Below are positions 2,112 through 28,477 of a DNA stretch of 64,000 nucleotides, piece by piece (within the stretch, counting starts at the first letter, position 1; the number at the start of each line of letters is the position of its first letter). The notes below the pieces were generated by a model, which saw only the letters and a program-made list of their open reading frames with translations, was not told the DNA's origin and did not search any database. The position numbers and the translations under genes were made by a program. The DNA comes from Minisyncoccota bacterium. GTDB lineage: Bacteria; Patescibacteriota; Minisyncoccia; Phycocordibacterales; UBA9973. The stretch covers positions 28,976 through 92,975 of the forward strand of contig JBAZRK010000001.1 in NCBI GenBank assembly GCA_041663005.1, written 5' to 3'.

Positions 2112-2561
2112 ATGTATATCATTTACGCATTGCTCGGGGCTGTTATGGCGAGCATGGGGACAATCTTTGCAAAGTTGGGGCTCAAGGGTGTGGACGCAAA
2201 TTTACTCACTGCGATTCGGGGTATAGTGATGGCTATTATAGTTTCTATCGCAGCGCTTTCTTTTGGCAAGCTTACAATGCCCGCAGTACAATCGCTATCT
2301 CCAAGGCAGTGGCTCTTTGTGGTGCTCTCCGGCTTGGGCGGCGCTTTGTCTTGGATATTTTTCTATCAAGCGCTATCTGTGGGTCCCACGGTCGCCGTCA
2401 CGGTCATAGATAAACTTTCTGTAGTTATCACCGCAATTCTCGCAATCTTCGTCCTGGCGGAAGGTATGACCATCCAATCGGGGATTGGGCTCGCTTTAGT
2501 CTTCCTCGGTACGCTTTTGGTGTCTGTGCCTTGGGAAAAAATAAAAGGATTATTTTTTTGA
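2112..2561 (+). CDS. small DMT/EamA-family membrane protein (single EamA domain, 4 TM)
   Basis: 149 aa from ATG 2112 (upstream in-frame extension to 1992 crosses a promoter and terminator so is unlikely translated); hydrophobic profile and EamA-like motif ...FFYQALSVGPTVAVTVIDKLSVVITAILAIFVLAE. Confidence 0.6.
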   Translation: MYIIYALLGAVMASMGTIFAKLGLKGVDANLLTAIRGIVMAIIVSIAALSFGKLTMPAVQSLSPRQWLFVVLSGLGGALSWIFFYQALSVGPTVAVTVIDKLSVVITAILAIFVLAEGMTIQSGIGLALVFLGTLLVSVPWEKIKGLFF

Positions 2562-2586
2562 ATTATTAAAAATTAATAAAATAAAG

Positions 2587-3441
2587 ATGATCACCAAAGA
2601 ATTAGAAAGATACATTATTCAAGCAAAAGCTCAGGGAATGACTGAAGCGCAAATTCGCCAGAACCTTATGGGGAGCGGAGGTTGGAGTCCTGCTGACCTA
2701 GATCAAGCCTTTAGTGTTTTTAGCGGAGGTGGTATTTCTGGGGGAACTGTTGTTGCCGGGGGCGCAACTGTTGGTGCAAAAAGTTATTTAGGCTGGGTGA
2801 TAGGAGCAATCCTCATATTAGGGGCAGTCGGCGGAGGTGGTTATTATTTTTTGAATCTTTCCAATAACCCAGGTTCATCTAGTTCAGAATTTAACGCAAG
2901 CACCGGTCAATTAAATTCATCAGAGGAAGATTTAGCTGCAGAAGGTTTGGGGCAAACACCGACTAACCCAGTACCAGGCACTTTAACAGAAAGCAAGCCT
3001 TCAAATACTTTTGGAGTAGAAAAAGATTGTGGAATTGCGTTGAATGATGATGAGTTTAATGATAAGGGAGCTTGCATGGGTCTGGCCCTAGCCACTTGTT
3101 CTCTAGCTAAGATAGCTCAAGGTCCTACCACCGAAAGGCTTACCATTACTATTAAACCAGAAGGAAACTCTTGCATATTATCAGCCTCTTCGAATGTAGA
3201 GGTTTCAGGTTTTGAACTCAAAACCTGCAAATTTTCAAATTCTTCCTTAAGCACACTAAGGTCAGAGTTACTTAATCTTAAGCAACGCGTTAACCCCTCT
3301 TTTAAAGGGGGTGCTATGGATGAATCCATTAATACCGATATTTTTCTAAGAATTTTTGAGGCGACGTTGGATGAAAAAGCATTGAAGAGTTTACAAACCG
3401 GCACTATTTCTTTCTCAAAAATGGATGTGAGTTGCCAGTAA
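2587..3441 (+). CDS. single-pass membrane protein, paralog family member A: conserved N-terminal cytoplasmic module + TM + Cys-rich ectodomain ending FSKMDVSCQ
   Basis: 284 aa; N-term MITKELERYIIQAKAQGMTEAQIRQNLMGSGGWSPADLDQAF, Gly-rich TM, ectodomain KDCG..ACMG..C..IKPEG..C..CKF...FSKMDVSCQ shared with the next gene. Confidence 0.75.
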   Translation: MITKELERYIIQAKAQGMTEAQIRQNLMGSGGWSPADLDQAFSVFSGGGISGGTVVAGGATVGAKSYLGWVIGAILILGAVGGGGYYFLNLSNNPGSSSSEFNASTGQLNSSEEDLAAEGLGQTPTNPVPGTLTESKPSNTFGVEKDCGIALNDDEFNDKGACMGLALATCSLAKIAQGPTTERLTITIKPEGNSCILSASSNVEVSGFELKTCKFSNSSLSTLRSELLNLKQRVNPSFKGGAMDESINTDIFLRIFEATLDEKALKSLQTGTISFSKMDVSCQ

Positions 3442-3470
3442 GAAATTATTATTAATTATTAACTAATTTT

Positions 3471-4355
3471 ATGATCACACCGGAATTAGAAAATTACATA
3501 AAACAATCTCGTGTGCAAGGAGTGCCCGATGCTCAAATCCGCCAGAATCTTATGGCAAGTGGGGGCTGGAGTGAAGGTGATTTAAATGAAGCGTTTGGAG
3601 GTTTTCAAACACCCATACCAACCCCAGTAGCAGCCGTAGGCATAGCCGCGTCCAGTCATTTGCCACTAATCTTTGGCATAATTGGAGTGTTGATTTTAGT
3701 TGGTGGAGGATTTTTGGGCTATCAATATTATTTAAAATATAAATTTTCACACTCTATAATGGTTTTCGATATGCCGTCTGATGAGAAAGTAAATGAACCG
3801 TCAAACACCACACAAGAAAATCCGCCCATAGAGCCAGAAGAGAGTTCGGGGTTTAGTGGGTTAATGTCTGGTGAAAAAGACTGTGGAACAGCTTTTATTT
3901 ACAGTAAAGATTATGATTTTAATAAAGCTAGCACAGACCTTCAAAACGCTACGAATATTAGAGAGGGTAATGCTTGTATGGGACGAGCTTTTTCTCCCTG
4001 CACGCCTGCAAAGTTAAAGGTATCGTTTTCCGACCCACAATTCGGTACGTCATACTACACAATTAAGCCAGAAGGAGATTTCTGTGTTCTTAATTTTTCA
4101 GAAGAAAATACCGTCAAATCAAATCAGGCACCATACAAATCTTGTAAGTTTTTAAATTCGGATATACCAGAAGTAAAAGCTGACCTCCAAAAAGTCCAAA
4201 ATTCTATGGGGATTATGGGGGCTGATGCCGAGCTTGCGACCAATGCCACGTTCTTTATGTTTGTCTCTACCACTTTATATAACGCAGAAAGTTTAAAACA
4301 AACTAAATCCATAATTGGGGTGGATTTCTCAAAAATGGATGTGAGTTGCCAGTAA
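3471..4355 (+). CDS. single-pass membrane protein, paralog family member B (tandem duplicate of previous gene)
   Basis: 294 aa; N-term MITPELENYIKQSRVQGVPDAQIRQNLMASGGWSEGDLNEAF; same six-Cys ectodomain pattern and identical C-terminus FSKMDVSCQ. Confidence 0.75.
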   Translation: MITPELENYIKQSRVQGVPDAQIRQNLMASGGWSEGDLNEAFGGFQTPIPTPVAAVGIAASSHLPLIFGIIGVLILVGGGFLGYQYYLKYKFSHSIMVFDMPSDEKVNEPSNTTQENPPIEPEESSGFSGLMSGEKDCGTAFIYSKDYDFNKASTDLQNATNIREGNACMGRAFSPCTPAKLKVSFSDPQFGTSYYTIKPEGDFCVLNFSEENTVKSNQAPYKSCKFLNSDIPEVKADLQKVQNSMGIMGADAELATNATFFMFVSTTLYNAESLKQTKSIIGVDFSKMDVSCQ

Positions 4356-4485
4356 ATCAAGCAAAGCTAATCCCTGGAGTCAGTTAACAGCTTTAGTTAT
4401 CCACAGTTTATTTTATATTAGTTAGGTATATAATTATGCTAAATTATAGTATTTTTATATTAATTATTAACTAATTTAATTAAAT

Positions 4486-5928
4486 ATGGATAACACATCC
4501 ACACGGGCAGGGCTGAAGAACTTTTTAGAAATTCCTTACGATACGCTCGAGGCGATGAACTTGAGAGCTAAGGCCCTTGCCGAGAAAGCGAGCGGGGCGG
4601 TGCTTGAGAAAGAATACCGAGCTTATCTCGCGAAAGAGAAACGAATAAAAGCAGTGACACTCTGCTTTACGGACCTAGAAGGGCGCTTCCATATGCTCGA
4701 CTACGATAAAAAATTTTTACTTAATTCAGCCGACAACCTGACCTTCGACGGGTCATCGATTCGTGGATTTTCCGAACAGCACGAGTCCGACCTGCGCCTG
4801 TCTGTGGACTGGGGCAGTATCCGATTTCTTCCCGCAGATATTTTCGGCCCTGGGAAAGTCGTGATGTTTGTGGATGTTTTAGATCGTGACCGCAAGCAAT
4901 ATATTTCTGATTTCCGCGGGCAGTTGAAAATGTATACTGCAACACTTAAAAAGAAGAGCGGACTTACTGCCTTTGCAGCGGCCGAAGTGGAGGGCTTCCT
5001 CGTGGATGGGGCTAATGCTGAGCAAGAATATGAAAAGAAAGGATTTACCCTTATTTCTACAGGGGGATATTACCATTCATTGCCACTGGACCGCTTGCGT
5101 CAATTCATTGACAGAGCGGCGGAAGCTCAGCGAGCGATGGGTTTCCTAAATGAAAAAGACCATCCGGAAGTGGCGCCCTCGCAGTTCGAAATGAATTTCT
5201 CTTATAGCGACATCATCCGTGCCGCGGACAATATTCAACTTTATAAGCTTGTGTGCCGTCAGGTGGCGGACAATCTCGGGATGACAGCGACATTCTTGCC
5301 GAAGCCGGTGGTGGGCATTAACGGTTCGGGAATGCATATCAATTTTTCTCTGGCAAAAAATGGCAAAAATATTTTCTATAGCGCCAAAGGTAAAGAAGGC
5401 TTGTCGGACATTGCCTGGGATTTCATTTCCCGACTTCTAAACCACGCGCCTGACATATGTCTCGCTTTCAACTCGAGCGTAAATGCTTATCGCCGATTGG
5501 ACCCGCATTTTGAAGCACCGAATCAGATAAAAGTATCACCGATAGATCGCGGATCAATGATTCGTATTCCAGTAGGGAACGAGAAAACAACACGAATAGA
5601 AGTGCGCTCTGTGGCACCTGACTCGAATCCTTACCTCGCCCTTTACACTATTCTCCGCACGGGGTTAGAAGGAAAGCCTCTAGTGAAAGACAAGGATAAA
5701 CGCGAACGAGTGCGTGTGTTACCGGACAACATTAATGACGCCATCAAGCTTTTCAAAGCGAGCGATTTCATTGGACGAATTTTAAGTGCGCCAAACCAGT
5801 GGAAATATGCAGAGTTCAAGCAAATGGCTGCAGACCGTAGCCCGAAGGCCCTGGGTGCTACCATCAAACCGTCGGAAATAATCTATCACCACGAAGTGAC
5901 CAACCAGGTCCTATGGCACGAGTTTTAG
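4486..5928 (+). CDS. glutamine synthetase family protein (GlnA-like; could alternatively be a gamma-glutamyl-amine ligase)
   Basis: 480 aa; beta-grasp N-domain (CFTDLEGRFH), catalytic-domain motifs PSQFEMNF and GSGMHINFSL resembling GS PGQFEI / GSGMHxHxSL. Confidence 0.75.
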   Translation: MDNTSTRAGLKNFLEIPYDTLEAMNLRAKALAEKASGAVLEKEYRAYLAKEKRIKAVTLCFTDLEGRFHMLDYDKKFLLNSADNLTFDGSSIRGFSEQHESDLRLSVDWGSIRFLPADIFGPGKVVMFVDVLDRDRKQYISDFRGQLKMYTATLKKKSGLTAFAAAEVEGFLVDGANAEQEYEKKGFTLISTGGYYHSLPLDRLRQFIDRAAEAQRAMGFLNEKDHPEVAPSQFEMNFSYSDIIRAADNIQLYKLVCRQVADNLGMTATFLPKPVVGINGSGMHINFSLAKNGKNIFYSAKGKEGLSDIAWDFISRLLNHAPDICLAFNSSVNAYRRLDPHFEAPNQIKVSPIDRGSMIRIPVGNEKTTRIEVRSVAPDSNPYLALYTILRTGLEGKPLVKDKDKRERVRVLPDNINDAIKLFKASDFIGRILSAPNQWKYAEFKQMAADRSPKALGATIKPSEIIYHHEVTNQVLWHEF

Positions 5929-7219: not shown

Positions 7220-7759
7220 ATGAAAAAAACAACAATTGGAATTTTCGTCGAGCGAAATGATGCGGAAAAATTTATAAACTACGTTCACAATGAAATCAAA
7301 ATTCCCCACGAAGACATTTCTTACATCTATAAAGATGTACTAGGGATTGAAAGGGAAGTTGATACTGAAGAAATAAGCTCGCTTACCACAGCCGAGGGTG
7401 CTGAGAAAGGGGCGAAGACTGGAGCTGTCGTGGGAGCCTTGGGCGGCATCGCTGCCGTCGCGGGCGTCATACCTATAGTCGGGATGCTTTTTGCTGCAGG
7501 GCCCTTGATTGCGGCCATTGGGATTACCGGGGCATTGGGCACTACAGCAGCCGGGGCGGTGACTGGGGCGGCCATAGGGGGCATTATAGGAGCACTAGCT
7601 AACCTTGGGGTGGGTAAAGAGCGAGCCAAGGATTATGAAGACAGGGTTCTCTCCGGCAACATCCTAGTTGCGGTTAACTCAGAACAAGAGAAGGACGTAG
7701 AGGATGCAATGGCGAAACACAATGCCCTTGAGGTGGAGACATATGTGCCGAGTGTATAA
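7220..7759 (+). CDS. glycine-zipper membrane protein (general-stress-protein-like, DUF1269/YflT-like; name tentative)
   Basis: 179 aa; central GxxxG/AxxxG-rich hydrophobic segment flanked by charged N and C domains. Confidence 0.55.
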   Translation: MKKTTIGIFVERNDAEKFINYVHNEIKIPHEDISYIYKDVLGIEREVDTEEISSLTTAEGAEKGAKTGAVVGALGGIAAVAGVIPIVGMLFAAGPLIAAIGITGALGTTAAGAVTGAAIGGIIGALANLGVGKERAKDYEDRVLSGNILVAVNSEQEKDVEDAMAKHNALEVETYVPSV

Positions 7760-7792
7760 ATTCTTATAATTAAAATAGCAGAGGAAACGCCC

Positions 7793-7840
7793 AGCTCGCA
7801 AGGTATCTTGCGAGCTGGGCGTTGTTTTTTGTCGTTTTTC
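7793..7840 (+). terminator. intrinsic terminator
   Basis: cccagctcgcaag gtatc ttgcgagctggg (13-bp stem) followed by cgttgttttttgtcg. Confidence 0.75.
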
Positions 7841-7881
7841 TGCTAAGATGTTAGAAGTTCTTTCAACAATTAAAAATACAT

Positions 7882-7953
7882 TCCGGGGTAGCTCAGCGGT
7901 AGAGCGGTCGCCTGTTAAGCGATTGGTCGTAGGTTCGATCCCTACCCCCGGAG
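7882..7953 (+). tRNA. tRNA-Asn (anticodon GUU)
   Basis: UCCGGGGUAGCUCAGCGGUAGAGCGGUCGCCUGUUAAGCGAUUGGUCGUAGGUUCGAUCCCUACCCCCGGAG: acceptor UCCGGGG/CCCCGGA, anticodon loop CUGUUAA, T-loop UUCGAUC, discriminator G; 3' end overlapped by the stop region of the recombinase ORF. Confidence 0.85.
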
Positions 7954-9426
7954 CCCAATAGGTTGGTTAGAAGTTGCAAGTATCTTGTCAAAGGGAGAAC
8001 GCATTGAAAACACTAGGTTTTTTCCTTCTAACTGACAGTTCTGAAGTAGAAAATTAAGAAGTTGCCTTTTTTCAGGCACTTCAGAACTCTTGAAAATCTC
8101 AAGGGCCCTTTTTGCTATGTTTAGTATTGTATTTGCAATCAAATAAAACTCTTCATCTGCTTCAGAGTGGATGCTCATATCAGTCAAAATAGCACTTTGT
8201 CTTTCTTTGAACTCTTTCAATTTCTTGTCATACATTTCATCTGTAATACGACCATCTAATTTGTCGTCATACATTTTACTTATGCGGTCCTCAATTTGAT
8301 CGTATTCTTTCTTTAGGTTTGTCATATGGAACTTATGAAAACTAGCTTCACTTTTGCCCATAGAGCGTAATCCTTCAGTTATCTCTCTGATACGCTCATC
8401 AGGCATTTCTAAGCCCTCTAGGACCTTATAAACGGGCTTTAGAAGCACATTCTCAGGCACATAGTCCCGTTTACATTCCTTACGATAATTAGTGCAACTA
8501 TAGTAAATATAGGTCTTGCCGTTCTTCTTAACTTTGATTTCAGGGCTTATACCGCAACCACATTTTGAACACTTAATAAGCCCTCTAAAAATGAATGGCT
8601 TAGCTGAGTATTGAAAAGGTTTCTTATTGTAGCTCAATCTAACATCTTGGCATTTATCAAAAAGGTCCTTGCTGATGATTGGTTTATATTTATGAGTGTT
8701 GGTTTTCCCTTTATAAAGCATAACGCCATAATAGAAAGGATTTTGTAGTATATGAGCAATCATACTAACTGAAAGCATTTTTCCATTTGAACTTTTAAGC
8801 CCATATTCAAAAATCAGCTTTCTTAATTGATGATGAGAGCTGTTGCCAGTTGCATATACTTCAAACATTTTCTTGATTAGTGGTGCATCGTGTTCGTCTA
8901 ATTCTATATCTTGTTTATCTTCAATGTTCGTAAAGTTTCTGTATCCTCTAGGTGCTTTTCCTGACCATTCGTGATTATCAAACTTCTGCCAAATACTACG
9001 CTTTACATCATCAGAAAGTCGGTTTAGATATTGTTTAGCTAAGAATACTTTAGCTTCCCACATAAACATTTGATTACCTGTAGCATCTTTGTTTATGAAG
9101 AAACCGTCTTTTACGAAATGGATTTCAAGCCCTTCATTTTTACGCATCTCGTCAAGGTCCACAGCATCCTTGAAGTTTCTAGTTGCTCGGTCCACATTTT
9201 CACAGAGTAAAACCTTTATATTATTTTTTCTAATATGTTCAAGAACTTCTTCAAACTTTCTGCGGATTTTTGGACCAGCACTTTCAGAGAAGCAAAACTC
9301 TTTTTCTATTTCAAAATCTCTTTTGATTGCATATTTCCGTAAACTATCAATTTGAGCAGGGAGTGAGTGTCCTGTTTCTTCTTGCTCTTTAGTTGATACT
9401 CTTGCGAGAACTACAGCTTTTATCAT
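7942..9426 (-). CDS. large serine recombinase (resolvase/invertase catalytic domain + recombinase domain + Zn-ribbon)
   Basis: 494 aa; N-terminal VVLARVSTKEQ catalytic-Ser motif; C-terminal CSKCGCG...YYSCTNY zinc ribbon and coiled-coil tail typical of phiC31-type integrases. Confidence 0.85.
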   Translation of the reverse strand: MIKAVVLARVSTKEQEETGHSLPAQIDSLRKYAIKRDFEIEKEFCFSESAGPKIRRKFEEVLEHIRKNNIKVLLCENVDRATRNFKDAVDLDEMRKNEGLEIHFVKDGFFINKDATGNQMFMWEAKVFLAKQYLNRLSDDVKRSIWQKFDNHEWSGKAPRGYRNFTNIEDKQDIELDEHDAPLIKKMFEVYATGNSSHHQLRKLIFEYGLKSSNGKMLSVSMIAHILQNPFYYGVMLYKGKTNTHKYKPIISKDLFDKCQDVRLSYNKKPFQYSAKPFIFRGLIKCSKCGCGISPEIKVKKNGKTYIYYSCTNYRKECKRDYVPENVLLKPVYKVLEGLEMPDERIREITEGLRSMGKSEASFHKFHMTNLKKEYDQIEDRISKMYDDKLDGRITDEMYDKKLKEFKERQSAILTDMSIHSEADEEFYLIANTILNIAKRALEIFKSSEVPEKRQLLNFLLQNCQLEGKNLVFSMRSPFDKILATSNQPIGLRG

Positions 9427-10763
9427 AGGTCAAATAAATTAGTTTCAAAATCTTTTCTTGCTTCTTCTTTTTGTAATTCAATCTTTCTTTTTATGTCGCT
9501 TATCTCTTCTCTTAAAGAGATTATTTTATTTACTATTTTTTCTTGAGTTTTTATATCAGGAAGTGGAATTGGGAAGCTAAGATATTCTTGACCATTTATG
9601 TTGGGCTGTCCAGATACTCTTTGTTTAGAGTTTATCCATAACTTAAAAGGTTTTGTTTTTGAGTAGAAAAATATAAAATCAGAATTAGCGATTTTAGGGT
9701 TTATTCTATACCTAACTAAATATCCAGCATAGATACATTTACCAAAATGATTTTTATATAAAAATGTTTTTCCAACAGTATTACCTGATCTAGCTATAAG
9801 AAGGTCGTTATCCTCTAAAAGATACTGTTTATCAAACTTTTCGCTTGAAACAATTTCATCATTAAGTGAACCGTCTTCATTTATATCTGTAATTCTTACA
9901 TACCTTGTATCTGTTATTTTATCCGATGCTCTTGAGTTAGAGCCATATTTAGGTTTATCTAAAAGAGTAGTTCCAAAACTAACAATATCAAACTTTGATG
10001 ATTTCATTATTTCTTTTTTATTCCAAAAATCCCATCTATCTAATTCTTTGAAATTAGTAAGATAAAATCTTTTATTTTTTAGTTTTTCTTCAATACTTAT
10101 TCCCAATTCCTCTGATAGATAATCTTCAATTTTTTCATTAAGTTCATCTACTTTCTGTTCTAATTTTCTTACTTGAACTAATTCTTTATCATACTTGGCT
10201 ACTAGAGATTTTTGAGTAGGTATAGACGGAAGGGGTATTTCTATATTACTAAGCAGGTCAAAAGATAGGTTTTGTCTAACTGAACCCTTCGTTGATTTCT
10301 TTACTAGATGATTGAAAGTATTTGTTTTGAATAGTCGGAAGAAGAAATCATTATCTAGTTTGTCTTCTAGGCAACTAAATACAACATAAGCATTACTTAT
10401 ATACTCATATTTTTGATTTTCAGTTTTGATACCAACAGAGCCAACATTTACACGATATGGATTATAGGCAATCCAGTTTGTTTTCATTATCTTGTATGGC
10501 TGGTTTATTTTTGAACCTTTCTCTAGGTAAGCATCAAATACGCCTGTCTTGTTATTTACTCCCAAAATACCAAACTCTTGATCTGGAAAATCTTTCAGTT
10601 TTACTTTCTCTGTCTGTTCGTTTAAGACCAAGCTGAGTTTTACAAAGTCATACTTTGATTTAAGGTTATTGGTAGCATAACTTTTTACATCCCAGTTTAG
10701 CCAATTACTAAAAGACACAGTTTGAAGGTATTTGTATTCAGTTTTTTCTTTTACTGATGACAT
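9423..10763 (-). CDS. hsdS: type I restriction-modification specificity subunit
   Basis: 446 aa; two target-recognition halves separated and followed by conserved coiled-coil repeats (TQKSLVAKYDKELVQVRKLEQKVDELNEKIEDYL... and TQEKIVNKIISLREEISDIKRKIELQKEEARK); 4-nt overlap with recombinase start. Confidence 0.8.
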   Translation of the reverse strand: MSSVKEKTEYKYLQTVSFSNWLNWDVKSYATNNLKSKYDFVKLSLVLNEQTEKVKLKDFPDQEFGILGVNNKTGVFDAYLEKGSKINQPYKIMKTNWIAYNPYRVNVGSVGIKTENQKYEYISNAYVVFSCLEDKLDNDFFFRLFKTNTFNHLVKKSTKGSVRQNLSFDLLSNIEIPLPSIPTQKSLVAKYDKELVQVRKLEQKVDELNEKIEDYLSEELGISIEEKLKNKRFYLTNFKELDRWDFWNKKEIMKSSKFDIVSFGTTLLDKPKYGSNSRASDKITDTRYVRITDINEDGSLNDEIVSSEKFDKQYLLEDNDLLIARSGNTVGKTFLYKNHFGKCIYAGYLVRYRINPKIANSDFIFFYSKTKPFKLWINSKQRVSGQPNINGQEYLSFPIPLPDIKTQEKIVNKIISLREEISDIKRKIELQKEEARKDFETNLFDL

Positions 10764-10764
10764 A

Positions 10765-12888
10765 TTACTTTGTTTTTTTATACTTACGATATTCTTTTAC
10801 AACATCAATAAGCTCATTTTCACACTTTTCGCCTGTAGTTGTAATACCAGCTTTTTCAACTTCAGCTATTGGGATTTGGTAATCAAACTTTGTTTTGATT
10901 TCTTGTTTGATTTCATTATCAATCGTGCTGTTTAGAGTATTAAGTTCTTTTTTCTTTGTCTTTTTTACTTCGCCTTTTAGGTCCTTAACTTCTTTTTCCA
11001 ATTTCTCTAATTCTTTTTGGTATTTTGCTCTAATAGAGTTATTAGCTTCTTCTTTTATCTTTTCATACTTTTTACTTTCTGCATCAGTAAACTTTTGTAA
11101 GAATACCAAGCTTGGTTTTACTGTAGCCCCACTAGCTATAAATACATCTTGAGGAATAGAAACGATAAGATCTATTTTCGCTCTACCTTCAAAGTATTCA
11201 CGGACCTTTTGCAAGTTAGGATTATTCAAAAATCCTTCAGGTAATACAACTGCCATTTTTCCGCCTTTCTTAAGTATTCTTAAGTAGCGTTCCATAAATA
11301 GAACTTCGGTAAGTGTTGAGAAGTTTCCAGTTTCGTATGTATCAATAAGATTTTTACCTATATTCCTCTCTAGGTTTCTAATTGCTTCTAAACCTTCTTC
11401 GCCAAATCTCTTTTGAATATAACTTTCTTTTCCTGCATATTTATTATCATTTTCAGTTATTTTTTGGTCCTTATTTACTCTTGAGCCAAAGGGTGGGTTA
11501 GTAAGAACTATGTCAAAGCGATTTTCAAATATACCTCCAACATCTAGTAAGCCGTCATTATGATGAACTCCTCCGTGTCCATCGCCGTGCATAATCATAT
11601 TCATTTTACTTGTTCTAGCCATTCTAGGGTTAGCATCAGAACCATAAATACATTTATGAGAAAGGTCATACAATCTTGAACCTTCGGTTTGATTATCTAA
11701 TTCTTTGTTTAGCTTTTTGAACTCTGTTTCAACAACTGCATCAATTTTTTCCTTTTCGGTATCATTTGATTTTTGATACTTTTCATCAAAGTATTTTTTC
11801 TTTATTTCTTCTTTTTTATTTAGAATATCATCTTCAATCTTTTCTCTTACATAATCAAACGCCTTAATAAGAAATCCTCCTGAGCCACAACAAGGGTCGC
11901 AAATCAGATCGCCTTCCTTTGGGTCCACAATATCAATCATAAAATCAACTATGGTTCTTGGTGTAAAGAATTGACCAAGTTCACCTCTAAAGGTTTTACC
12001 TAAGAATTGTTCAAAAGCTATACCTTTTACATCATCACCAGTATCAGAAAGGTTGTATCTTTCAAGTTCTTTCACTATTTGCTCAAAGCTATTTTCACGG
12101 ATTTTGATTTCTTCATTAGCTTCAAAGAGTTCATCTTTCTCAAAATCTTCTTTTGTCTTTTCAAATAGGACCTGATAGAAAGGTTTTGAGTTCTTAGATG
12201 CTGTTTCATCATATCCTTTTTTAAGTTCGTTGAAACGACTTATTGAGAATACCTTCTTTCCTTGCTGTCTTTCATATCTAATTTTTATAAACAAGATTTT
12301 ACTTATCTCATCAAAAGCACCTTCAGGGGATAGTTTGTCATTATTTCTAATTATATTGTGGCACTTGAAAAGTAGTTTTGAAAACTCATCTCTAGTAAAT
12401 ACTTTTGTTTCTTCAGCTAATTCTTTGAGCTTTTCTTCATCATTTACATCACTTGCTTTCGGTATGTTTACAATTTCATTCAAATCAACAGGGAGCTTAT
12501 TCTCAAGCATTTGAAAATACTTTGTTTCTGCATTGTTGTGAGTTATGAAAAACTTGGCTCTAGCCCAAGAAGCATAGTTATTACCTTGATAGTAATCTTC
12601 AGGGTGTATAACGACATTGTCTGACTTACATTCAACTACAATGAAAGCATTTGTTTTACTTAGTTTTTCTTCTTTTGATTTCCAAATTACAATATCCGCT
12701 CTTGATTTTCCTTGTCCTCTTTGGCTGTTATTTACTTGAAGTTCTTCATCCATTTGCTCAAGTGAATATCCGTAATCATTTACAAGTGTGCAAATATAAT
12801 TTTGTCGGACCTCTTCTTCAGGGGTATAAGAAAGCCACTTGTTTCTTAGAGGAGAGAATATCTTATTGTTTTCCATTTGTATTTTCAT
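10765..12888 (-). CDS. hsdM: type I RM N6-adenine DNA methyltransferase subunit with extra N-terminal HsdR-N/Mrr-like domain
   Basis: 707 aa; motif I DPCCGSGGFL, motif IV LTNPPFG; N-terminal ~130 aa (RADIVIWKS...NAFIVVECKSDN) matches HsdR N-terminal (PD-(D/E)xK-like) module pattern. Confidence 0.85.
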   Translation of the reverse strand: MKIQMENNKIFSPLRNKWLSYTPEEEVRQNYICTLVNDYGYSLEQMDEELQVNNSQRGQGKSRADIVIWKSKEEKLSKTNAFIVVECKSDNVVIHPEDYYQGNNYASWARAKFFITHNNAETKYFQMLENKLPVDLNEIVNIPKASDVNDEEKLKELAEETKVFTRDEFSKLLFKCHNIIRNNDKLSPEGAFDEISKILFIKIRYERQQGKKVFSISRFNELKKGYDETASKNSKPFYQVLFEKTKEDFEKDELFEANEEIKIRENSFEQIVKELERYNLSDTGDDVKGIAFEQFLGKTFRGELGQFFTPRTIVDFMIDIVDPKEGDLICDPCCGSGGFLIKAFDYVREKIEDDILNKKEEIKKKYFDEKYQKSNDTEKEKIDAVVETEFKKLNKELDNQTEGSRLYDLSHKCIYGSDANPRMARTSKMNMIMHGDGHGGVHHNDGLLDVGGIFENRFDIVLTNPPFGSRVNKDQKITENDNKYAGKESYIQKRFGEEGLEAIRNLERNIGKNLIDTYETGNFSTLTEVLFMERYLRILKKGGKMAVVLPEGFLNNPNLQKVREYFEGRAKIDLIVSIPQDVFIASGATVKPSLVFLQKFTDAESKKYEKIKEEANNSIRAKYQKELEKLEKEVKDLKGEVKKTKKKELNTLNSTIDNEIKQEIKTKFDYQIPIAEVEKAGITTTGEKCENELIDVVKEYRKYKKTK

Positions 12889-12896
12889 AATAGTTT

Positions 12897-13088
12897 TTAT
12901 TGTGTGCTTGTTTTCTTTAAGAATGCTTCAAAGTCCGACCTATCTATACGAAACTCTTTTCCTATCTTATGTGCCTTGAGTTTCTTTTTGTCTATGTAGC
13001 GATAAATTGTCATTATGTTTAGCCCCAATTTATCTGCTAAATCTTTGGCGGTGTAGAAATCTTTTTCTTTCATATGTTTTTTATTCAT
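12897..13088 (-). CDS. excisionase-family helix-turn-helix DNA-binding protein
   Basis: 63 aa; YTAKDLADKLGLNIMTIYRYIDKKKLKAHKIGKEFRIDRSDFEAFL matches excisionase/MerR-type HTH pattern (..LS..T.YR.I..G.L.A.K.G...RI...D...F). Confidence 0.65.
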   Translation of the reverse strand: MNKKHMKEKDFYTAKDLADKLGLNIMTIYRYIDKKKLKAHKIGKEFRIDRSDFEAFLKKTSTQ

Positions 13089-13106
13089 AGTTATATTTAT
13101 AATACT

Positions 13107-14243
13107 TTACTTTTCTTTACAAGGCAAATCTTGAAGAGTGGATAAACGGAATGGTTCAAAGTCCTTTAAGCTATGCTCTATTTGCCTTACCCAAGCGTGG
13201 TATGTTTTACCTGAAATATCATCAAGAAACTTCAAATCTTCTGCTATACGATACCAAGTCCGAGTTGTAGCGTATCTTTCAATAATGGATCTAGTATCTC
13301 TTATACCTTCCTTGCTAAGAGCCCTAAGTCCTACTAAGTAAATTGCATCTACTGGCTTTATTTTCGGCTTATTTTTGAAGATAGTATCTAGCGTTTTCTT
13401 TGGATTACTTTCTACATCAAACAAGAATAAGTTTTTACCTGTTATTAGTTCGGTCCAGTAATTGAGAAGTATTTTTTGACAAAGTTCTTTATTGAAAACC
13501 TCCTTAAAGGTTGGTTTTTCCTTGAACCCTAAACTTTTTAGAGTGGCATTCATTTTTACTTTTTTTGCAAGTCTAACTTCTATTCGTAATACTTCTTTTT
13601 TATCTTTTTTAATTAAGGTATCAAACAAGGAAAGTTGGACCGAGTTTTGGTCTTTATCCATTGCTCTTTTGTCTGGTTTTTTAAGGTCCTGAACTTTGTC
13701 ATAAACAACAAGCGAGTGTGAGTTCGTATAGAACTGAAGAGAGTGTCCGCTATTTCTGAAACTATCACGATTAAGGTCCATTTTCTTACTAACATCAATC
13801 TTGTGTAGTTCAGTAATAACAAAACTTGAAGTATAACCTTCTGTTAGTTCTATGTTTTTGGAGGGGTGGAAAGCAGATACTTTCGCATTTCTCAAATCTT
13901 CGTGAGATACGCCAACTAACATATCAAGCATTGCTTCGTGTAGAGCAGATATAACTTTTTCAAAGTCCTTTTCTTCAACTTCATCAACATTGTTTCCGTA
14001 TAGCATTTTGGCTACAGAGAACTCTATCTTCAGCGGTATTTCATCGCCGTTTCTTGTCATTCTTTTCATTAGGGTTAGGCGTGGCTTGTAAGTTCCTTGT
14101 TTTTTATCTGTAGCGGTTGGATTGTTTACGCATTTCACTAAGTAATTTCCTGACATCTTAAGAATGTTCGCATTCGGTGTAAATGCTTCAGGTCTGAGCT
14201 TATAGGATCCTCTAGGGATTGTTAGGATTACTGTATCTAGCAT
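13107..14243 (-). CDS. uncharacterised island protein, possibly a replication-initiation (Rep_trans/CRI-like) protein
   Basis: 378 aa; N-terminal MLDTVILTIPRGSYKL resembles start of rolling-circle/phage replication initiator families; no other recognisable motifs; assignment tentative. Confidence 0.35.
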   Translation of the reverse strand: MLDTVILTIPRGSYKLRPEAFTPNANILKMSGNYLVKCVNNPTATDKKQGTYKPRLTLMKRMTRNGDEIPLKIEFSVAKMLYGNNVDEVEEKDFEKVISALHEAMLDMLVGVSHEDLRNAKVSAFHPSKNIELTEGYTSSFVITELHKIDVSKKMDLNRDSFRNSGHSLQFYTNSHSLVVYDKVQDLKKPDKRAMDKDQNSVQLSLFDTLIKKDKKEVLRIEVRLAKKVKMNATLKSLGFKEKPTFKEVFNKELCQKILLNYWTELITGKNLFLFDVESNPKKTLDTIFKNKPKIKPVDAIYLVGLRALSKEGIRDTRSIIERYATTRTWYRIAEDLKFLDDISGKTYHAWVRQIEHSLKDFEPFRLSTLQDLPCKEK

Positions 14244-14446
14244 ATTTTTCTTTTACATATAAATGCGGATTTACTCTTTTATCAACCTTAAGAAGCAAGG
14301 CAAAAAAACCTAATACATTGTCTTGCTCTGTTTCGCTAAGTTCTTTTAACGACCAGTCCGTATTCAATTTTTCTTTGTTTTCTTCGGACATAAAAAAACC
14401 TATAAGGTTATGCTTATAGATTATTCTTATGCTTGTTTACAAAAGT

Positions 14447-16042
14447 TTATAAACTTTTGCGGACCTTTATATATTTTGGATTTATGGATATTGTCTTAGT
14501 TGTTATTTCAAGAAAATCCTTAATAGTAGTTTCTTGGGCTATGGTCCTATTTACTGCTTTTCCTGCTTGATAAGCTTTGTTTTTCTTTATCTTTTCGCCA
14601 AAAGAGTAGCCCCAATCTTCTTGTATTTCATCATTAGCCCAAGTTTTAGAAACATCTTTGAATAAGGTTCTCATTAGTTTATGCGGATCGCTTTCTTCTT
14701 TTTTGGCAATAAGTATTTCTTTTCCTGCAAAAATAAGTTTACGGTTTTTATCATCAAAAATAGGATTTTTATCAATCTTAATTTCTTTGACTGGTTCGGT
14801 TGTTTTTCTCTTATTACTTAATCTTACTTTGAAAAGATAACCTCTATCATATAAATCAAATAAATGTTTAGGACCATATGAAAAATCTTCAATAGTAAGA
14901 TAACCTTCTCTTTCTAAGGAAAGCATAGCGTGAACAAACAAAAACAAATCCTTTATTTTGTCTTTATCGTTCAATGGGACCAGTTTTACAGTGTTGTCTG
15001 TATAGTCGCCAATATACTCAGGTTCAAAGAATGGGTGTCCTATTTCTAGGTCATTTCTTTGATACTCTTCATATTTTCCTTCAATATGTTTTACAAGCAT
15101 ATCCCTTTGTTTTTTGAAGCCAAAAAATTGAGTATGCAAAGGCGTTGAAAGTCCTTTAGAAAAGAAAGTTCCAGTTAGTCCTTTTTTACTAGTTCCGTCT
15201 AATTCATCTCTTTCAAAAGAGGTTATATATTTATCTAAAAACGCTTCTAGTTTCGTGGTGTTTTTTATAGCCAATCCAAACTCAGCGTATTCAAAAATAA
15301 GTTTTGCTAATCTTGTTTGAGTATCTTCATAAAATGCTGTTTTTTCTGTAAGAGCATTTATTTTGAATTGTTCTTTGTTGTGCCTGAAATATATACTTAA
15401 AAACCCTTCAGCTTCTTTCGTGGTCCATTTACTGCCGTCATACTCAGTAATAAGTTTGTTTATTATTTCAATAAAATCTTTATCAGATTTTTTATTAAGA
15501 ATTGCTTCTTGATATTCTCTTACTGGGGGATTAGCTAATTTTGTAAATAACACTTGATCGTCTATGTTGTTTTTTCTTTTTCTACTTATCAATTCATCTA
15601 GGAATTGTTTTTGCTCTTTTGTTAGATATTTTAAGATTTCCTTATCTTTAGGGTTTTCTAAGTAATCATTCATTGAACCTCTAACATCATCGGTAAGAAA
15701 TCCTCCTTCAACCAAGCTATAATCAGCATTCGCATATACAATAAAACCTTTTTCATCAAGAAGTTTTCCTATCTCTAAAAGATAACGCAAGACAAAAGGA
15801 GAACCCATAAGAGAATCTATTCTCTTCATTGATTGCTCATATGAATTACTTATATCTTCTTCTAGTGTAGCAATTTCACTAGGTTGTTTTGGGATCTGTA
15901 TAGGCGTAAACTTTTGGTTGGGTGTAAATAATCCGCTATTATCAGTAGATATTCTTTTATATCTAAAAAGCCAATACAAAATAAGAAGCTCTTTTTCATC
16001 TAAGTATTTTTTGTCCTTATTTTCTATATCTAAGGGGTTCAT
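14447..16042 (-). CDS. hypothetical protein (531 aa), no recognisable domain
   Basis: Long uninterrupted ORF, AT-rich island codon usage, first gene of the co-oriented island operon; no Walker, nuclease or MTase motifs seen by eye. Confidence 0.55.
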   Translation of the reverse strand: MNPLDIENKDKKYLDEKELLILYWLFRYKRISTDNSGLFTPNQKFTPIQIPKQPSEIATLEEDISNSYEQSMKRIDSLMGSPFVLRYLLEIGKLLDEKGFIVYANADYSLVEGGFLTDDVRGSMNDYLENPKDKEILKYLTKEQKQFLDELISRKRKNNIDDQVLFTKLANPPVREYQEAILNKKSDKDFIEIINKLITEYDGSKWTTKEAEGFLSIYFRHNKEQFKINALTEKTAFYEDTQTRLAKLIFEYAEFGLAIKNTTKLEAFLDKYITSFERDELDGTSKKGLTGTFFSKGLSTPLHTQFFGFKKQRDMLVKHIEGKYEEYQRNDLEIGHPFFEPEYIGDYTDNTVKLVPLNDKDKIKDLFLFVHAMLSLEREGYLTIEDFSYGPKHLFDLYDRGYLFKVRLSNKRKTTEPVKEIKIDKNPIFDDKNRKLIFAGKEILIAKKEESDPHKLMRTLFKDVSKTWANDEIQEDWGYSFGEKIKKNKAYQAGKAVNRTIAQETTIKDFLEITTKTISINPKYIKVRKSL

Positions 16043-16083
16043 ATATACTTTACTTTACTTTACTTTTAGATATAATTCAATAG

Positions 16084-16871
16084 TGGAAAATCAAAAATAC
16101 AGATTATACATAGATGAGTCGGGCACTCATAAATACAGTAATTCTACTGACATCAAAGAACGCTATTTGTGTTTATTAGGGGTGATAATTTCTTCTGAGC
16201 ACAATCAAAACTTTATTTCTCCAAAATGGGAAGAGTTAAGAAATATATTTACACAAGATGCTGATTTTCCGCCTGTCTTTCATTATGTAGATGTTGTAAG
16301 TGGGAATAATGGGTTTGGAAAACTATCTGAACAAAATACCAGAGAAACATTTAATCAAAAGTATTTAGAACTCTTAAAAGATGGCGAATATACCATTTGT
16401 TGTGTTGTATTAGATAAAAAAACACATATTGAAACATATAATACCTCAGCTATGCATCCGTATCATTATTGCCTAAATGTTCTCTTGGAAAGATATGTAA
16501 GGTTTTTATCAAGTAAAAATGCAAGTGGTGATGTTTTAGCTGAAGCCAGAGGAAAAAAAGAAGATAATTTACTTCGTTCAGAGTTTGAGAGATTTTATGA
16601 ACACGGAACATCTTTTCTGGAAGCTGATATTGTAAAAAAGCGATTGACGAGCCATAAGCTAAAACTCAAAACTAAGGAAGCTAAAATTGCTGGTTTAGAA
16701 ATTGCAGATATGTTGGCTACGCCAATGAAGTATCTGACACTTAAAAAATATAAGAAAATAGATGCTCTGAGTGATAATTTTACAAAAACTGTATTAGATA
16801 CTGTTTTCTCTAAAGTTCGTAAAAGTCCCTTTACTGGTTCTACTCAAGGTTATGGGATCAAGCTAATATAA
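16084..16871 (+). CDS. DUF3800 family protein
   Basis: Probable GTG start at 16084 just after TATAAT (16070-16075); N-terminal YRLYIDESGT motif characteristic of DUF3800; annotated ORF extension to 15918 overlaps divergent gene and is rejected. Confidence 0.5.
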
Positions 16872-17111
16872 ATAGAAAAACCAGCTTTCGCTGGTCCTCT
16901 ACGACGCTCTTACGAGACATCCCACTCCAATAAATGGATTACTTTTATTATACCAGTTTTAAGCTCAAAATGATAGGAAAAACTTTTTGGTGTGTATAAC
17001 TTATTATATAGCCACTGGTCTTTGTAAAAGCCCTAAAATACCGCTAAAGCCCAATTCTTTCTGTATTTCTTTCCAATTGATAGTTCTGAACTCGGACAAT
17101 ACAGGGAGCAA

Positions 17112-17146
17112 TGTTAAAATCTTAAGTCCACGAAAGTGGGCTTAAG
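17112..17146 (-). terminator. hairpin terminator downstream of PP-loop gene (possibly bidirectional)
   Basis: cttaagtccacgaaagtgggcttaag stem-loop flanked by A/T runs on both sides. Confidence 0.4.
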
Positions 17147-17151
17147 ATTTT

Positions 17152-18459
17152 TTAGTTTACCAAGACCCTTTTCTCCATTTCATCAAAATTGTAGTTCGCA
17201 GGAAAGTGTTTTAGAAAAAGCTCGATCGCCGGTTCGCCTGCATATTCTTTACTCTCTGCTGCATAATGCATTGCGAGAATCATCTCTTCCGGTTCACCGA
17301 CACAGTCCAGTGGTTTAAACCCTTCGATGCCTAGGATGCGGCGAAAGAGTGGTAGCAAACGCAAGTTTTCATAAAGGTTGGCCCCGAAGATACTGACCAC
17401 TTCTTTTTTTGGGAGATATGCCGAAAAGCAGGCAAAGAGGAATACACATTTAGGACACCGTTTGCACCAGTATGCCCGACGCCGTAGAAGCTGCTCCGGG
17501 CGCGAAAGCCAAAAATAGTTATTGCAGCTGGTAACGTGGTGGAGATACTGCGGATACTGCACGAAGCGACGCACAATTTCTAGCTCGCTGTACTTTCGCA
17601 AAAGCGATTTTGTGGAAATGTCGGGTGTTATGTAGCGTTGTATGTAATCATTAACCATTTTTTCTGCCTCGGATGATTTACACCATTGATGATTAACTTC
17701 AAGTCCGCGGTAGGTGAGATTGCCGAAATCAGCGCTTCGTTCGTTTGAGAATACGATGGAATTGTAGCCTAGAAGTTCAGCTAGTAACGCAGCAACGAAG
17801 CTGAAAGTTGAAACTGACGGATAGGCGTTAGAAATTCCAAAAATGGACATTATAAAGTCGCTGGATGAATCGCGGCGGCGAGTTACGGTAATTGTTTTCG
17901 CGCCCACGAGCGCGCCAATGCGCTTGTGTGCTGGGGTTGGAGCAAAAGCGAAAAAGTCGAACGGTGCACCTGACCCCTTCAACATTTCAGCGGAGAGGAT
18001 AGAATCTTTGCCTGCGCCATTTAGAAGAAGAGCTCTCGCTGGCCGGGGGAAACGCGCGGGCGTAGGCGCAGGAAGAGATTCATCATAGGGGAAGGAGATA
18101 ACATTATGAAAATCCATCTTCATATCGTAGAAGAATTCTCCGAGTCCATTCAAATATAGCGAGTCCCAGAAATGGGCTTGCTCACGCGTTAACGTAAAGT
18201 CCTGAATGCGGATGTTCCTCGTCGGGAAGAGGCACCAGTAGTTAATACCGAGCATTAGGAGAAGCGCCTGAAGCGTAGGCTCGAGAACTTCCTTCGGAAC
18301 ATTGCCCCATGATTCCGGAGGGATGTCCTTGAGTATAAGCTTATCGGTAAAAGTTTTCGTAATCCCAAATTTAAATTGTACTTTGTAGGTAAAGGTGATG
18401 ATTGAACTAGTAGGGTCCACTTTATATGTGCCGAAAGTAAAAGATGACGGATGCAACAT
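17152..18459 (-). CDS. PP-loop (adenine nucleotide alpha-hydrolase) superfamily ATPase with C-terminal CxxC Zn-ribbon-like motifs; function unknown
   Basis: 435 aa; LLLNGAGKDS resembles SGGxDS PP-loop; WCKRCPKC plus additional Cys; GC-rich relative to neighbouring island. Confidence 0.6.
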   Translation of the reverse strand: MLHPSSFTFGTYKVDPTSSIITFTYKVQFKFGITKTFTDKLILKDIPPESWGNVPKEVLEPTLQALLLMLGINYWCLFPTRNIRIQDFTLTREQAHFWDSLYLNGLGEFFYDMKMDFHNVISFPYDESLPAPTPARFPRPARALLLNGAGKDSILSAEMLKGSGAPFDFFAFAPTPAHKRIGALVGAKTITVTRRRDSSSDFIMSIFGISNAYPSVSTFSFVAALLAELLGYNSIVFSNERSADFGNLTYRGLEVNHQWCKSSEAEKMVNDYIQRYITPDISTKSLLRKYSELEIVRRFVQYPQYLHHVTSCNNYFWLSRPEQLLRRRAYWCKRCPKCVFLFACFSAYLPKKEVVSIFGANLYENLRLLPLFRRILGIEGFKPLDCVGEPEEMILAMHYAAESKEYAGEPAIELFLKHFPANYNFDEMEKRVLVN

Positions 18460-26934: not shown

Positions 26935-27061
26935 TCCGGCCTAGATTTTAGTCCACAAATAACTAAAAAGTAAACATGTTCGAGAAGTGGACGAACTAGA
27001 ATAATTATGTACTTTCTGCTATACTTTGAATCTGTTGAAATTTATTAGTTAAATTTATATT

Positions 27062-27175
27062 ATGGCAAAAAGAGGAACGACATTGAGCCCAAAGAACAAG
27101 TCCAGGCATTCTCATAAGACCAAGAAACGACTGGCAATTAAACACGAGATGCTAGTGAAAAAAGCAAAGAGGTAA
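27062..27175 (+). CDS. small basic protein (37 aa), possibly ribosomal-protein-like
   Basis: MAKRGTTLSPKNKSRHSHKTKKRLAIKHEMLVKKAKR; directly followed by a strong intrinsic terminator; weak resemblance to the NNRSHALNATKRRF region of bL28; below ORF-track length cutoff. Confidence 0.3.
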   Translation: MAKRGTTLSPKNKSRHSHKTKKRLAIKHEMLVKKAKR

Positions 27176-27185
27176 ATCGACAAAC

Positions 27186-27226
27186 TAAAATCACCCTTCG
27201 ATAAACTCAGGGTGATTTTAGTTTTT
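27186..27226 (+). terminator. intrinsic terminator
   Basis: aaaatcaccc ttcgataaactca gggtgatttt agttttt. Confidence 0.65.
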
Positions 27227-27255
27227 AGTATCGGCCATACTATATTGTTTTAGTT

Positions 27256-27468
27256 TTAAACGTATTCAACGTCATACATAGCTAGCGCTTCTTCAACGCA
27301 AGCCGAGCAGATACCAAATCGAACAGAAACTTTTTCATCAGCATCTTTTTCGAGTAGGTAGTCGGGTCTTTCGAAGTGCCACCTGTTGTCATACTTGAAA
27401 GCATAACACTTGCGGCACATTTCTAGTAAGTCGGTATTTAGAACTTGTTCCTTATGTTCCTTTAACAT
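27256..27468 (-). CDS. small Cys-containing hypothetical protein (CxxC...CxxC)
   Basis: 70 aa; CRKC and CSAC pairs suggest a Zn-ribbon; no family recognised. Confidence 0.4.
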   Translation of the reverse strand: MLKEHKEQVLNTDLLEMCRKCYAFKYDNRWHFERPDYLLEKDADEKVSVRFGICSACVEEALAMYDVEYV

Positions 27469-28429: not shown

Positions 28430-28477
28430 TATTAAATTTATATTAACTCTTTACACAGGATTATTAACAGTCCTTGT

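Follow-up and report, generated by a model that had tools for sequence, protein, structure and literature searches.

Phage Mx8 of Myxococcus xanthus inserts at the 3′ end of a tRNA gene (tRNA-Asp). Its attP site lies within the integrase gene int, and integration gives the gene a new 3′ end and the protein (Int/IntX) an altered C-terminus, an arrangement that has been called a molecular switch (PMC6070905). Serine integrases at tRNA genes were described as 'not reported previously' in a 2020 survey, with 14 of 297 predicted cases for which proof is needed (PMC7192596). In Patescibacteria, genomic islands with restriction-modification (R-M) genes have been noted, with no mechanism given (PMC12455944). 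The present analysis concerns 64,000 nucleotides of a Minisyncoccota genome (GCA_041663005.1, contig JBAZRK010000001.1, positions 28,976 to 92,975), hereafter the window, and an AT-rich island within it. Our results indicate that a site-specific integrative element, found widely in genomes of Patescibacteria (Paceibacteria-like), is very probably integrated at positions 7955-17109, having been inserted at the tRNA-Asn 3′ end by a large serine recombinase (LSR). Moreover, attP of this element appears to lie inside the 3′ end of the LSR gene, and integration is predicted to swap a conserved tail of the protein for a short tail read antisense to the tRNA. The crossing of attP by the LSR reading frame was absent from the initial annotation of the locus.

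Ends of the element and specificity of its integrase

The initial annotation had described a mobile AT-rich island at 7882-17150, placed at tRNA-Asn by an LSR. Most of this picture stands. In the window profile, GC falls from ~0.45 to 0.29-0.34 over ~8000-17000 and then rises again, and the exact values (0.322 for 7955-17109, 0.446 for the left flank and 0.436 for the right flank) agree with the drop to ~30% that had been claimed. The same ends occur in unrelated neighbourhoods, an empty site was found (L005), and a sister element (L053) is circular. The tight packing of genes was also borne out, with seven large open reading frames (ORFs) and, in addition, a conserved ORF of 59 amino acids. 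The extent had to be corrected: comparison with relatives sets the ends of the integrated element at 7955 and 17109, which gives 9,155 bp with 32.2% GC.

At the left end, ARAGORN calls the host tRNA-Asn(GTT) at 7881-7957 (+), the mature tRNA probably spanning 7882-7953. Contigs were fetched for LSR homologues of 97, 86, 85, 78, 75, 65, 56 and 52% identity. In the window and nine related loci, the bodies of tRNA-Asn are host-specific and all of them close in GGAGC. From host to host, the acceptor stem co-varies on its two strands as far as GGA, as seen in TCCGGGG/CCCCGGA (window), TCCGTGG/CCACGGA (L034) and TCCGGCG/CGCCGGA (L035). Directly 3′ of GGAGC, the 10 loci share the element-conserved sequence CC[A/T/G]ATAGGTTGG... 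(CC[A/T/G]ATAGG...), corresponding to the antisense strand at the LSR gene's 3′ end. Given that the acceptor strands co-vary per host and that element-conserved sequence follows GGAGC, the mature tRNA is host DNA, constituting the B arm of attL, and the attL junction is 7954|7955, with the crossover contained in the left core copy GGAGC (7950-7954). The element had been thought to re-supply the tRNA's 3′ end; since host sequence makes up the body of the tRNA, 3′ strand of the acceptor stem included, and the crossover falls in GGAGC at the extreme end of the gene, the element gives only the 3′ trailer. The LSR region of L048 is 92% identical in DNA to the window as far as the tRNA, and unrelated to the left of it.

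At the right end, a conserved motif of ~40 nt (CTTTCCAATTGATAGTTCTGAACTCGGACAATACAGGGAGC; 17069-17109), the P arm of attR, ends in the right GGAGC copy (17105-17109). This motif recurs in L014, L028, L034, L035, L038, L045, L047, L049, L050, L051 and L052. In every locus that has it, similarity ends right after AGGGAGC and the sequence beyond is unrelated; the contig of L034 terminates exactly at this point. The only repeat flanking the element at both ends is the 5-bp GGAGC, in agreement with the earlier remark that the right end has no long direct repeat, and this identical core is all that comparison can define as the crossover region.

Beyond the right end lies a host hairpin terminator (17116-17151, from the terminator scan), which also ends a convergent MurL-like gene. 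A comparison with relatives free of the insertion had been suggested, and L005 provides it: there, an uninterrupted tRNA-Asn is followed at once by a homologous hairpin (TTAAAATCTTAAGTC...GATTTTTTAG), like that at window 17116-17151. When window 7882-7954 is joined to 17110 onward, the alignment with L005 scores 156; the integrated sequence scores 114. For the window's own element, the predicted empty attB site would read ...CCCTACCCCCGGAGC|AATGTTAAAATC... (GATCCCTACCCCCGGAGC|AATGTTAAAATCTTAAGTCC), and the predicted attP junction ...GGACAATACAGGGAGC|CCAATAGGTTGG... (GAACTCGGACAATACAGGGAGC|CCAATAGGTTGGTTAGAAG).

The LSR gene of the integrated copy (7942-9426, -) encodes a short form of 494 amino acids. 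Its domains are PF00239 Resolvase (1.2e-18, residues 4-145, with Ser11 in an RVSTKEQ motif), PF07508 Recombinase (2.4e-14) and PF13408 Zn_ribbon_recom (7.5e-09); the protein matches the integrase family phrog_95 at 1.9e-72, and residues 178-470 align to the C-terminal domain of the A118 integrase (4kis). As had been noticed earlier, the ORF ends in tRNA-Asn. Its stop codon (7942-7944) lies inside the tRNA, so that the last four codons and the stop (GLRG*) are antisense to the acceptor and T stems. Among the candidates scored, 1,685 proteins belong to the family at E <= 1e-20.

Specificity for the tRNA end is a property of the family. All 10 LSR loci adjoin the 3′ end of tRNA-Asn, with differing host genes beyond, and the neighbouring genes are different at the tRNA-Asn that holds the 97%-identical LSR (L048). 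Of the 120 best homologues, about 103 terminate in peptides antisense to a tRNA 3′ end (...GLRG*, ...LLRR* and ...LRGQDSNLRPIG*, the DSN of the last deriving from the T loop). ARAGORN makes no tRNA call in L049 and L050 because a group I intron of ~200 nt splits the anticodon loop of tRNA-Asn. The intron of L050 (11520-11714, -) matches RF00028 with 40.8 bits (E 4.6e-9), below the gathering score of 50, and that of L049, beside its LSR, is similar; both were missed by the Rfam scan at the gathering threshold and found by a local E-value scan. L028, considered as an empty site, was rejected because it holds a decayed copy consisting of the last ~100 LSR codons and the right-end motif.

Elements build up in tandem at tRNA-Asn in L038, L045, L051 and L052. 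In L038 (5242-6813) the right-end motif directly touches the 3′ end of another LSR, different from the first (27% identity), and in L051 (1516-3162) that of a second LSR of 548 amino acids. L045 has two right-end motifs 1 kb apart (7301 and 8345), and the LSR of L052 (11340-11611) reads into the end motif of the neighbouring element. A more distant LSR, 34% identical, is found at 7574-9156 of a 9.3-kb human-gut contig named 'Bacteriophage sp.' (L054, MT836653.1), with a convergent tRNA-Glu 48 nt away; the rest of the backbone genes went undetected on that contig. It may be that a broader clade of LSRs, with specificities for other tRNAs, also targets tRNA ends.

Other repeats near the ends were considered and rejected as att sites. 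The 8-mer AGCCCAAT (7952-7959 and 17048-17055) was discarded as a core since the conserved end motif, which elements carry in many hosts, lies to the right of it; its right copy encodes the codons ELGF of the integrase tail discussed below. A 36-nt direct repeat (8021-8056/17066-17101, 75% identical) with AGTTCTGAA 9-mers was set aside, both as att sites and as the remnant of an old integrase, because its copies are read in different frames (LLQNC versus FRT) and equally good repeats are many in AT-rich DNA. It is probably due to chance, or possibly a shared binding motif. Within the LSR coding sequence, ~85 nt from the left end, 8036-8092 holds a perfect inverted repeat of 11 bp (AGTTCTGAAGT...ACTTCAGAACT) and, inside it, a hairpin; the repeat is kept in relatives down to 56% protein identity. 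Its 9-mer AGTTCTGAA also occurs in the right-end motif (17082-17090), and could be a shared binding site or merely reflect coding constraint (NFLLQNC).

The integrase reading frame at attP

If the two ends of the element are joined, the LSR frame runs on into a second coding segment at 17004-17108 (-), of 34 codons (LPVLSEFRTINWKEIQKELGFSGILGLLQRPVAI) and a stop, which would be used only in the joined state. The free circle of the window's element is thus predicted to encode an LSR of 525 amino acids, the integrated copy being the form of 494 that ends in the host-dictated GLRG*. The peptide LPVLSEFRTINWK would lie in the tail and be specific to the predicted 525-residue form.

The tail is conserved as a coding sequence. 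Taking the frame that the LSR sets (…ATT GGG | CTC …), we translated every right-end motif on its minus strand, and this frame was open for 31-41 codons, with a conserved peptide, in 13 of the 13 element ends tested. The consensus, of about 33-34 amino acids, is LPLLSEFRTVDWKAI..EL.FSGL, and relatives have LPLLSEFRTVDWKAVRQDFEFSGL…, LPLIETFRTLNWSQIKADLGLSGV… and similar tails. The same tail is found in the database proteins P0013, P0026 and P0087 (521-525 amino acids), and in P0023, which comes from the circular L053.

The segment 17004-17108 could instead be conserved as DNA, for LSR or helix-turn-helix (HTH) binding sites in the P arm of attP, with the open frame being incidental. The attP half-sites of LSRs are conserved within families, and the first ~9 codons of the tail (27 nt), which are its most conserved part (pairwise differences of 0.20, 0.10 and 0.35 at the three codon positions), hold AGTTCT(G/A)AA, a motif that also occurs twice in the LSR 3′ region. 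However, conservation reaches at least 63 nt from the core, past the usual LSR half-site, and over the whole tail variability tracks codon position, with differences of 0.35, 0.21 and 0.48 (third > first > second; third > second, p = 0.002). Conserved residues use different codons, including synonymous switching between AGC and TCA for Ser, and the other two frames meet stops in most of the 13 ends. In L053, translation in the LSR-set frame yields just 16 codons, since its LSR crosses the junction in a different frame; even so, the motif LDWKAI..EL.GL is kept as protein, nine codons further from the core. Purely DNA-level conservation is for these reasons distinctly unlikely, and the tail is better read as part of the integrase.

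L053 is also the sister element in which the joined ends can be seen. It is a 9,589-bp contig of the Logan assembly of SRR16915460, and its 30-nt exact terminal overlap, the signature of a circle in a k=31 assembly, makes it a circle of 9,559 bp. When opened at the predicted core, its order is LSR, HTH, p378 (the ORF spanning the contig ends), C-terminal domain of p531, cargo and end motif, with identities to the window of 58% (LSR), 56% (HTH), 53% (p378) and 29% (p531 C-terminal domain). It has no tRNA. Its element ends are joined at GGGAGC, as ...CATCTCGGGAGC|CAGATGAAAT..., a joint that corresponds to what excision at GGAGC would predict.

It is tempting to propose that the LSR has two genetically programmed forms, the full-length one being made from the free circle only, and that integration acts as a built-in switch from an integrating state to one that stays, or is excised with help. 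We put this forward tentatively, giving it somewhat less than an even chance. If the tail tunes activity, stability or directionality, integration itself would flip the state of the LSR; for instance, the tail might be needed for synapsis of attP with attB, or might be a signal for degradation or autoinhibition. No description of a comparable built-in switch for any serine integrase was found in limited literature searches.

Several observations weigh against the reading of 7955-17109 as an LSR-inserted element with attP inside its integrase gene. The sole empty site comes from a distant relative, L005, whose MurL is 73% identical and which has an extra ~700 bp between hairpin and MurL; a same-species empty site was not found for the window's own element. 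The pattern of its predicted attP junction has no match in IMG/VR or in JGI metagenome contigs, and the right-end motif alone, used as a query, returned only integrated ends. The B′ side of attB differs between hosts, as is not usual in attB sites of LSRs. Common descent of the 13 element ends means that the codon statistics overstate independence, and the 30-nt terminal overlap of L053 could in principle stem from a tandem duplication rather than a circle. Lastly, no transfer machinery is encoded, and the element has neither capsid nor conjugation genes.

Backbone, cargo and proposed life cycle

Gene order in the backbone is kept across elements: p531, a small ORF, p378, a gene of the HTH_17 family, cargo and LSR. 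The HTH_17 gene (12897-13088, -) encodes a DNA-binding protein of the excisionase family that scores above the cut-offs of both models (PF12728, 5.6e-14, 52.6 bits versus 27; TIGR01764, 48.1 bits versus 28.8). It had been annotated as excisionase-like cargo. The family assignment is retained, and the gene is moved to the backbone, since it is present in all related elements and adjoins the LSR directly, lying upstream of it, in L037 and L053, and so does not belong to the R-M cargo. In phiRv1, an LSR is paired with a small HTH recombination directionality factor of the excisionase type. The HTH_17 protein of the element is a candidate directionality factor or regulator.

The gene p378 (13107-14243, -) encodes a putative rolling-circle replication initiator or relaxase. 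The earlier description of a Rep_trans-like protein holds at the level of the fold, which is that of Rep_trans; no family sequence model supports it, as p378 has no match to Pfam (E <= 0.01), NCBIfam or PDB sequence models. Among 30 relatives, six match Phage_CRI (best 1.7e-6) and two match Rep_trans PF02486 (best 0.015), and Y181 is invariant in the alignment. In contrast to RepD/RepDE (4cwc, 4cij) and G2P (Phage_CRI), p378 has an extra helical C-terminal domain of ~130 amino acids. An origin-like hairpin was sought in 16872-17010, and folding gave only the terminator hairpin of the DUF3800 gene (z = -1.4). The conserved 59-amino-acid ORF (14212-14391, -) is supported by gene calls in L031 and L036 and is replaced by a SpoVG-like gene in some relatives.

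The first backbone gene, p531 (14447-16042, -), has a variable N-terminal part and a conserved C-terminal part of ~100 amino acids, which matches at the fold level the winged-helix effector DNA-binding domains of the OmpR/PhoB type. Just upstream, in the divergent control region, lies a run of four ACTTT pentamers (16047-16066; GTAAA repeats in the direction of p531), equivalent to three TTTAC and a degenerate copy. A fourfold tttac run had been reported at 16043-16083; the fourfold repeat is real and does not reach 16083. It overlaps the plus-strand promoter-like sequence TTTACT-16-TATAAT of the divergent gene, given by the promoter scan. In L034, L035, L036, L037, L045 and L049, GTAAA repeats likewise lie upstream of the first backbone gene, at a distance of 5-25 nt.

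Backbone and cargo form a mosaic with two cargo slots, slot 1 between HTH and LSR and slot 2 between the control region and the right end. In the window, slot 1 holds a specificity (S) subunit with two target-recognition domains (9423-10763, -; PF01420; PADLOC Specificity_I 8.6e-95, 316 bits) and an N6-adenine methyltransferase (M; 10765-12888, -; PF13588 and PF02384; PADLOC MTase_I 1101 bits). The latter has an N-terminal HSDR_N_2 domain (5.8e-23), PD-(D/E)xK-like and with a visible D..ECK motif, fused to N6_Mtase. In relatives, slot 1 holds M and S, an m5C methylase with a HpaII-/NgoFVII-type endonuclease, a MmeI-like gene, a methylase with a helicase, or nothing. Slot 2 carries a DUF3800 protein (16083-16871, +), as annotated before (PF12686, 6.1e-10), and other genes in relatives. 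L045, whose backbone is 88% identical and which has the right-end motif, matches the window to 16095 and from 17055 onward, and not in between.

The M and S proteins had been taken for a type I R-M module. They resemble HsdM and HsdS and both subunits are there, but the system is incomplete: no HsdR was found in the island or among ORFs of at least 550 amino acids in the window. The nuclease-like domain fused to the methylase, together with a separate S subunit, recalls type IIB enzymes such as BcgI and BsaXI; RM.BsaXI (type IIB) is also the longest PDB alignment of the M protein, covering residues 165-611, the methylase part only. The order HTH-M-S resembles mad1-mad2-mad5 of MADS, but the scores are far below the cut-offs (MAD2 290 bits versus 720, MAD5 60 versus 400, MAD1 32.7 versus 80), no other gene of the mad1-mad8 set is present, and the HTH gene is element backbone. 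No inverted hsdS repeats occur beside the LSR, and a shufflon or phase-variation role for it was rejected on that ground.

We propose the following life cycle. The LSR would recombine attP with the extreme 3′ end of the host tRNA-Asn (attB), with this copy presumably still catalytic. The crossover would fall inside GGAGC, which is made up of the final bases of the acceptor stem, the discriminator G and one further base, with strand exchange probably at a non-palindromic dinucleotide within it. With the crossover in GGAGC, the mature tRNA would stay wholly host-encoded and the terminator would be displaced by 9.2 kb. The B arm would be formed by the T arm and acceptor end of the tRNA, and the B′ arm would be tolerant, since host flanks differ. 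In the circle, the LSR ORF would cross the joint into the other end of the element, giving 525 amino acids with the ~34-residue tail; after integration it would enter the antisense strand of the tRNA and stop after a few host-dependent codons. p378 probably copies the excised circle by rolling circle, or nicks it for transfer. The adjacent excisionase-like HTH_17 protein probably assists excision, and the winged helix of p531 probably controls the element through the GTAAA repeats.

The Rep_trans fold is common to rolling-circle Rep proteins and to the MOB_T relaxases of integrative and conjugative or mobilisable elements. p378 might thus be a MOB_T-type relaxase, and the element an integrative mobilisable one moved as single-stranded DNA by a foreign conjugation or DNA-uptake apparatus and not replicating by itself. 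The fold of p378 fits both functions, and the element is without any other transfer function. Nevertheless, neither a coupling protein nor a type IV secretion gene is present in this element or in the related ones examined, several relatives of p378 match the phage G2P family (Phage_CRI) and not a relaxase model, and a free circle assembled as its own contig fits a maintained or amplified form. We consider mobilisation by a relaxase unlikely, while keeping it in view, and a replication initiator is preferred.

Helper-dependent packaging is a further possibility, with the island being a phage satellite or cryptic prophage. In size class (9-11 kb), tRNA site and possession of genes for an integrase, an excisionase-like protein and replication, the island resembles elements like the phage-inducible chromosomal islands and the tycheposons (bioRxiv 10.1101/2020.12.28.424599), and the LSR matches phrog_95. 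This reading is very unlikely, given that Pfam, PHROGs and NCBIfam reveal no capsid, terminase, portal or packaging gene, p378 has no match in 50,697 phage records, and the end motif and attP pattern have none in IMG/VR.

It is highly improbable that the island is a dead remnant, an old insertion that became fixed and whose LSR was kept or domesticated, for example to regulate the R-M genes. Decayed copies do exist, as in L028, and the excised form of this copy was not found in IMG/VR or JGI metagenome contigs. Against this, no backbone ORF is broken, the two ends agree with the family consensus, the 34-codon tail is uninterrupted, and inverted hsdS repeats that would suit a shufflon role are missing. 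A 97%-identical LSR elsewhere at tRNA-Asn (L048) and an 88%-identical backbone with different cargo (L045) indicate recent movement and module exchange. We therefore retain the reading of a mobile integrative element.

The host is a Patescibacteria genome, of the Candidate Phyla Radiation (CPR). The window lies on a 332,839-bp metagenome contig, k141_962724 of ENA ERZ27249449. The 30 nearest genomic relatives of the right-flank MurL-like gene (17152-18459, -; 67-77% identity) are all from metagenome-assembled genomes of Patescibacteria/CPR (30/30), of groups such as Paceibacterota, Parcubacteria and Nomurabacteria. In five of the genomes with MurL relatives, tRNA-Asn lies 0.75-4.8 kb downstream of MurL, and since the content between the two differs, the locus is a variable spot. 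L007 has, at 8840-8885, ~800 bp downstream of MurL, 46 nt that duplicate the 3′ half of tRNA-Asn (resembling window 7916-7961), with no complete tRNA within its 18-kb locus; it may be a tRNA piece displaced by a different element that crosses over in the anticodon loop. An identical MurL gene is present in a second sample (L032, a 2,563-bp Logan contig of SRR18595301), which stops 5 nt before the right junction of the island; this would fit a break in the assembly at a variable site, but proves nothing and is uninformative on the junction. On the left flank, an ORF of 179 amino acids (7220-7759, +) has no family match, and its C-terminal half, rich in glycine and alanine (GAVVGALGGIAAVAGV...), resembles a glycine-zipper membrane segment. 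GC also dips to 0.36-0.39 (versus ~0.45) at window ~2500-4500 and ~27000-28500, which might be other acquired segments.

Comparison with known systems

When large DNA is to be inserted one way, serine integrases are the tools of choice, and they had been believed to avoid tRNA genes. Here, a large and internally consistent LSR family targets a 5-bp core at the end of tRNA-Asn. Since the sequence itself yields attP, attL, attR and a reconstructed attB, the family is directly testable in vitro, and an attP that spans the gene would be a simple and testable coupling of integrase form to integration state. The elements also suggest how streamlined Patescibacteria, whose mobile elements are little characterised, might exchange R-M and other defence cargo: the vehicle would be a small circle that integrates, brings its own replication initiator, has two slots for cargo and piles up in tandem at a single tRNA. 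This element family may be the main tRNA-targeting mobile element family of Patescibacteria.

We found no description in the literature of this LSR family or of an LSR at tRNA-Asn, within an incomplete coverage. The LSRs A118, TP901-1, Bxb1, phiC31, phiRv1 and CcrAB have the same three-domain architecture, short att sites, a tiny identical core and no long direct repeats. The family described here differs from them in its tRNA gene target and in the ORF spanning attP, and the window LSR is no more than ~34% identical to any phage record and ~25% identical to integrases that have been characterised.

Prochlorococcus tycheposons are similar in being small cargo-carrying elements at tRNA genes, with site-specific integrases, replication genes and build-up of islands at tRNA sites, and 27 of 937 use a large serine recombinase (bioRxiv 10.1101/2020.12.28.424599). 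They belong to another phylum and have other hallmark genes; the present element has no primase, helicase or polymerase, and a Rep_trans-fold protein instead. The actinomycete integrative and conjugative elements pSAM2, SLP1 and pMEA300 measure 10-17 kb, occupy specific tRNA genes and have int-xis-rep genes and a free circular replicative form (PMC2440964). They too are small integrating circles at a tRNA with an int-xis-rep module, but they use tyrosine integrases and an FtsK-like Tra protein for conjugation, neither of which is present here.

Taken together, the unusual points are a serine integrase with family-wide specificity for tRNA ends, an attP inside the integrase gene and a backbone specific to Patescibacteria. 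A swap of the integrase tail on insertion was found described only for the tyrosine integrase of Mx8. As in Mx8, attP lies here inside the integrase coding sequence and integration would change the C-terminus. Mx8, however, is a 49-kb phage with a tyrosine recombinase, whereas here the swap, as read from the sequence, concerns an LSR carried by a 9-kb non-viral element of Patescibacteria.

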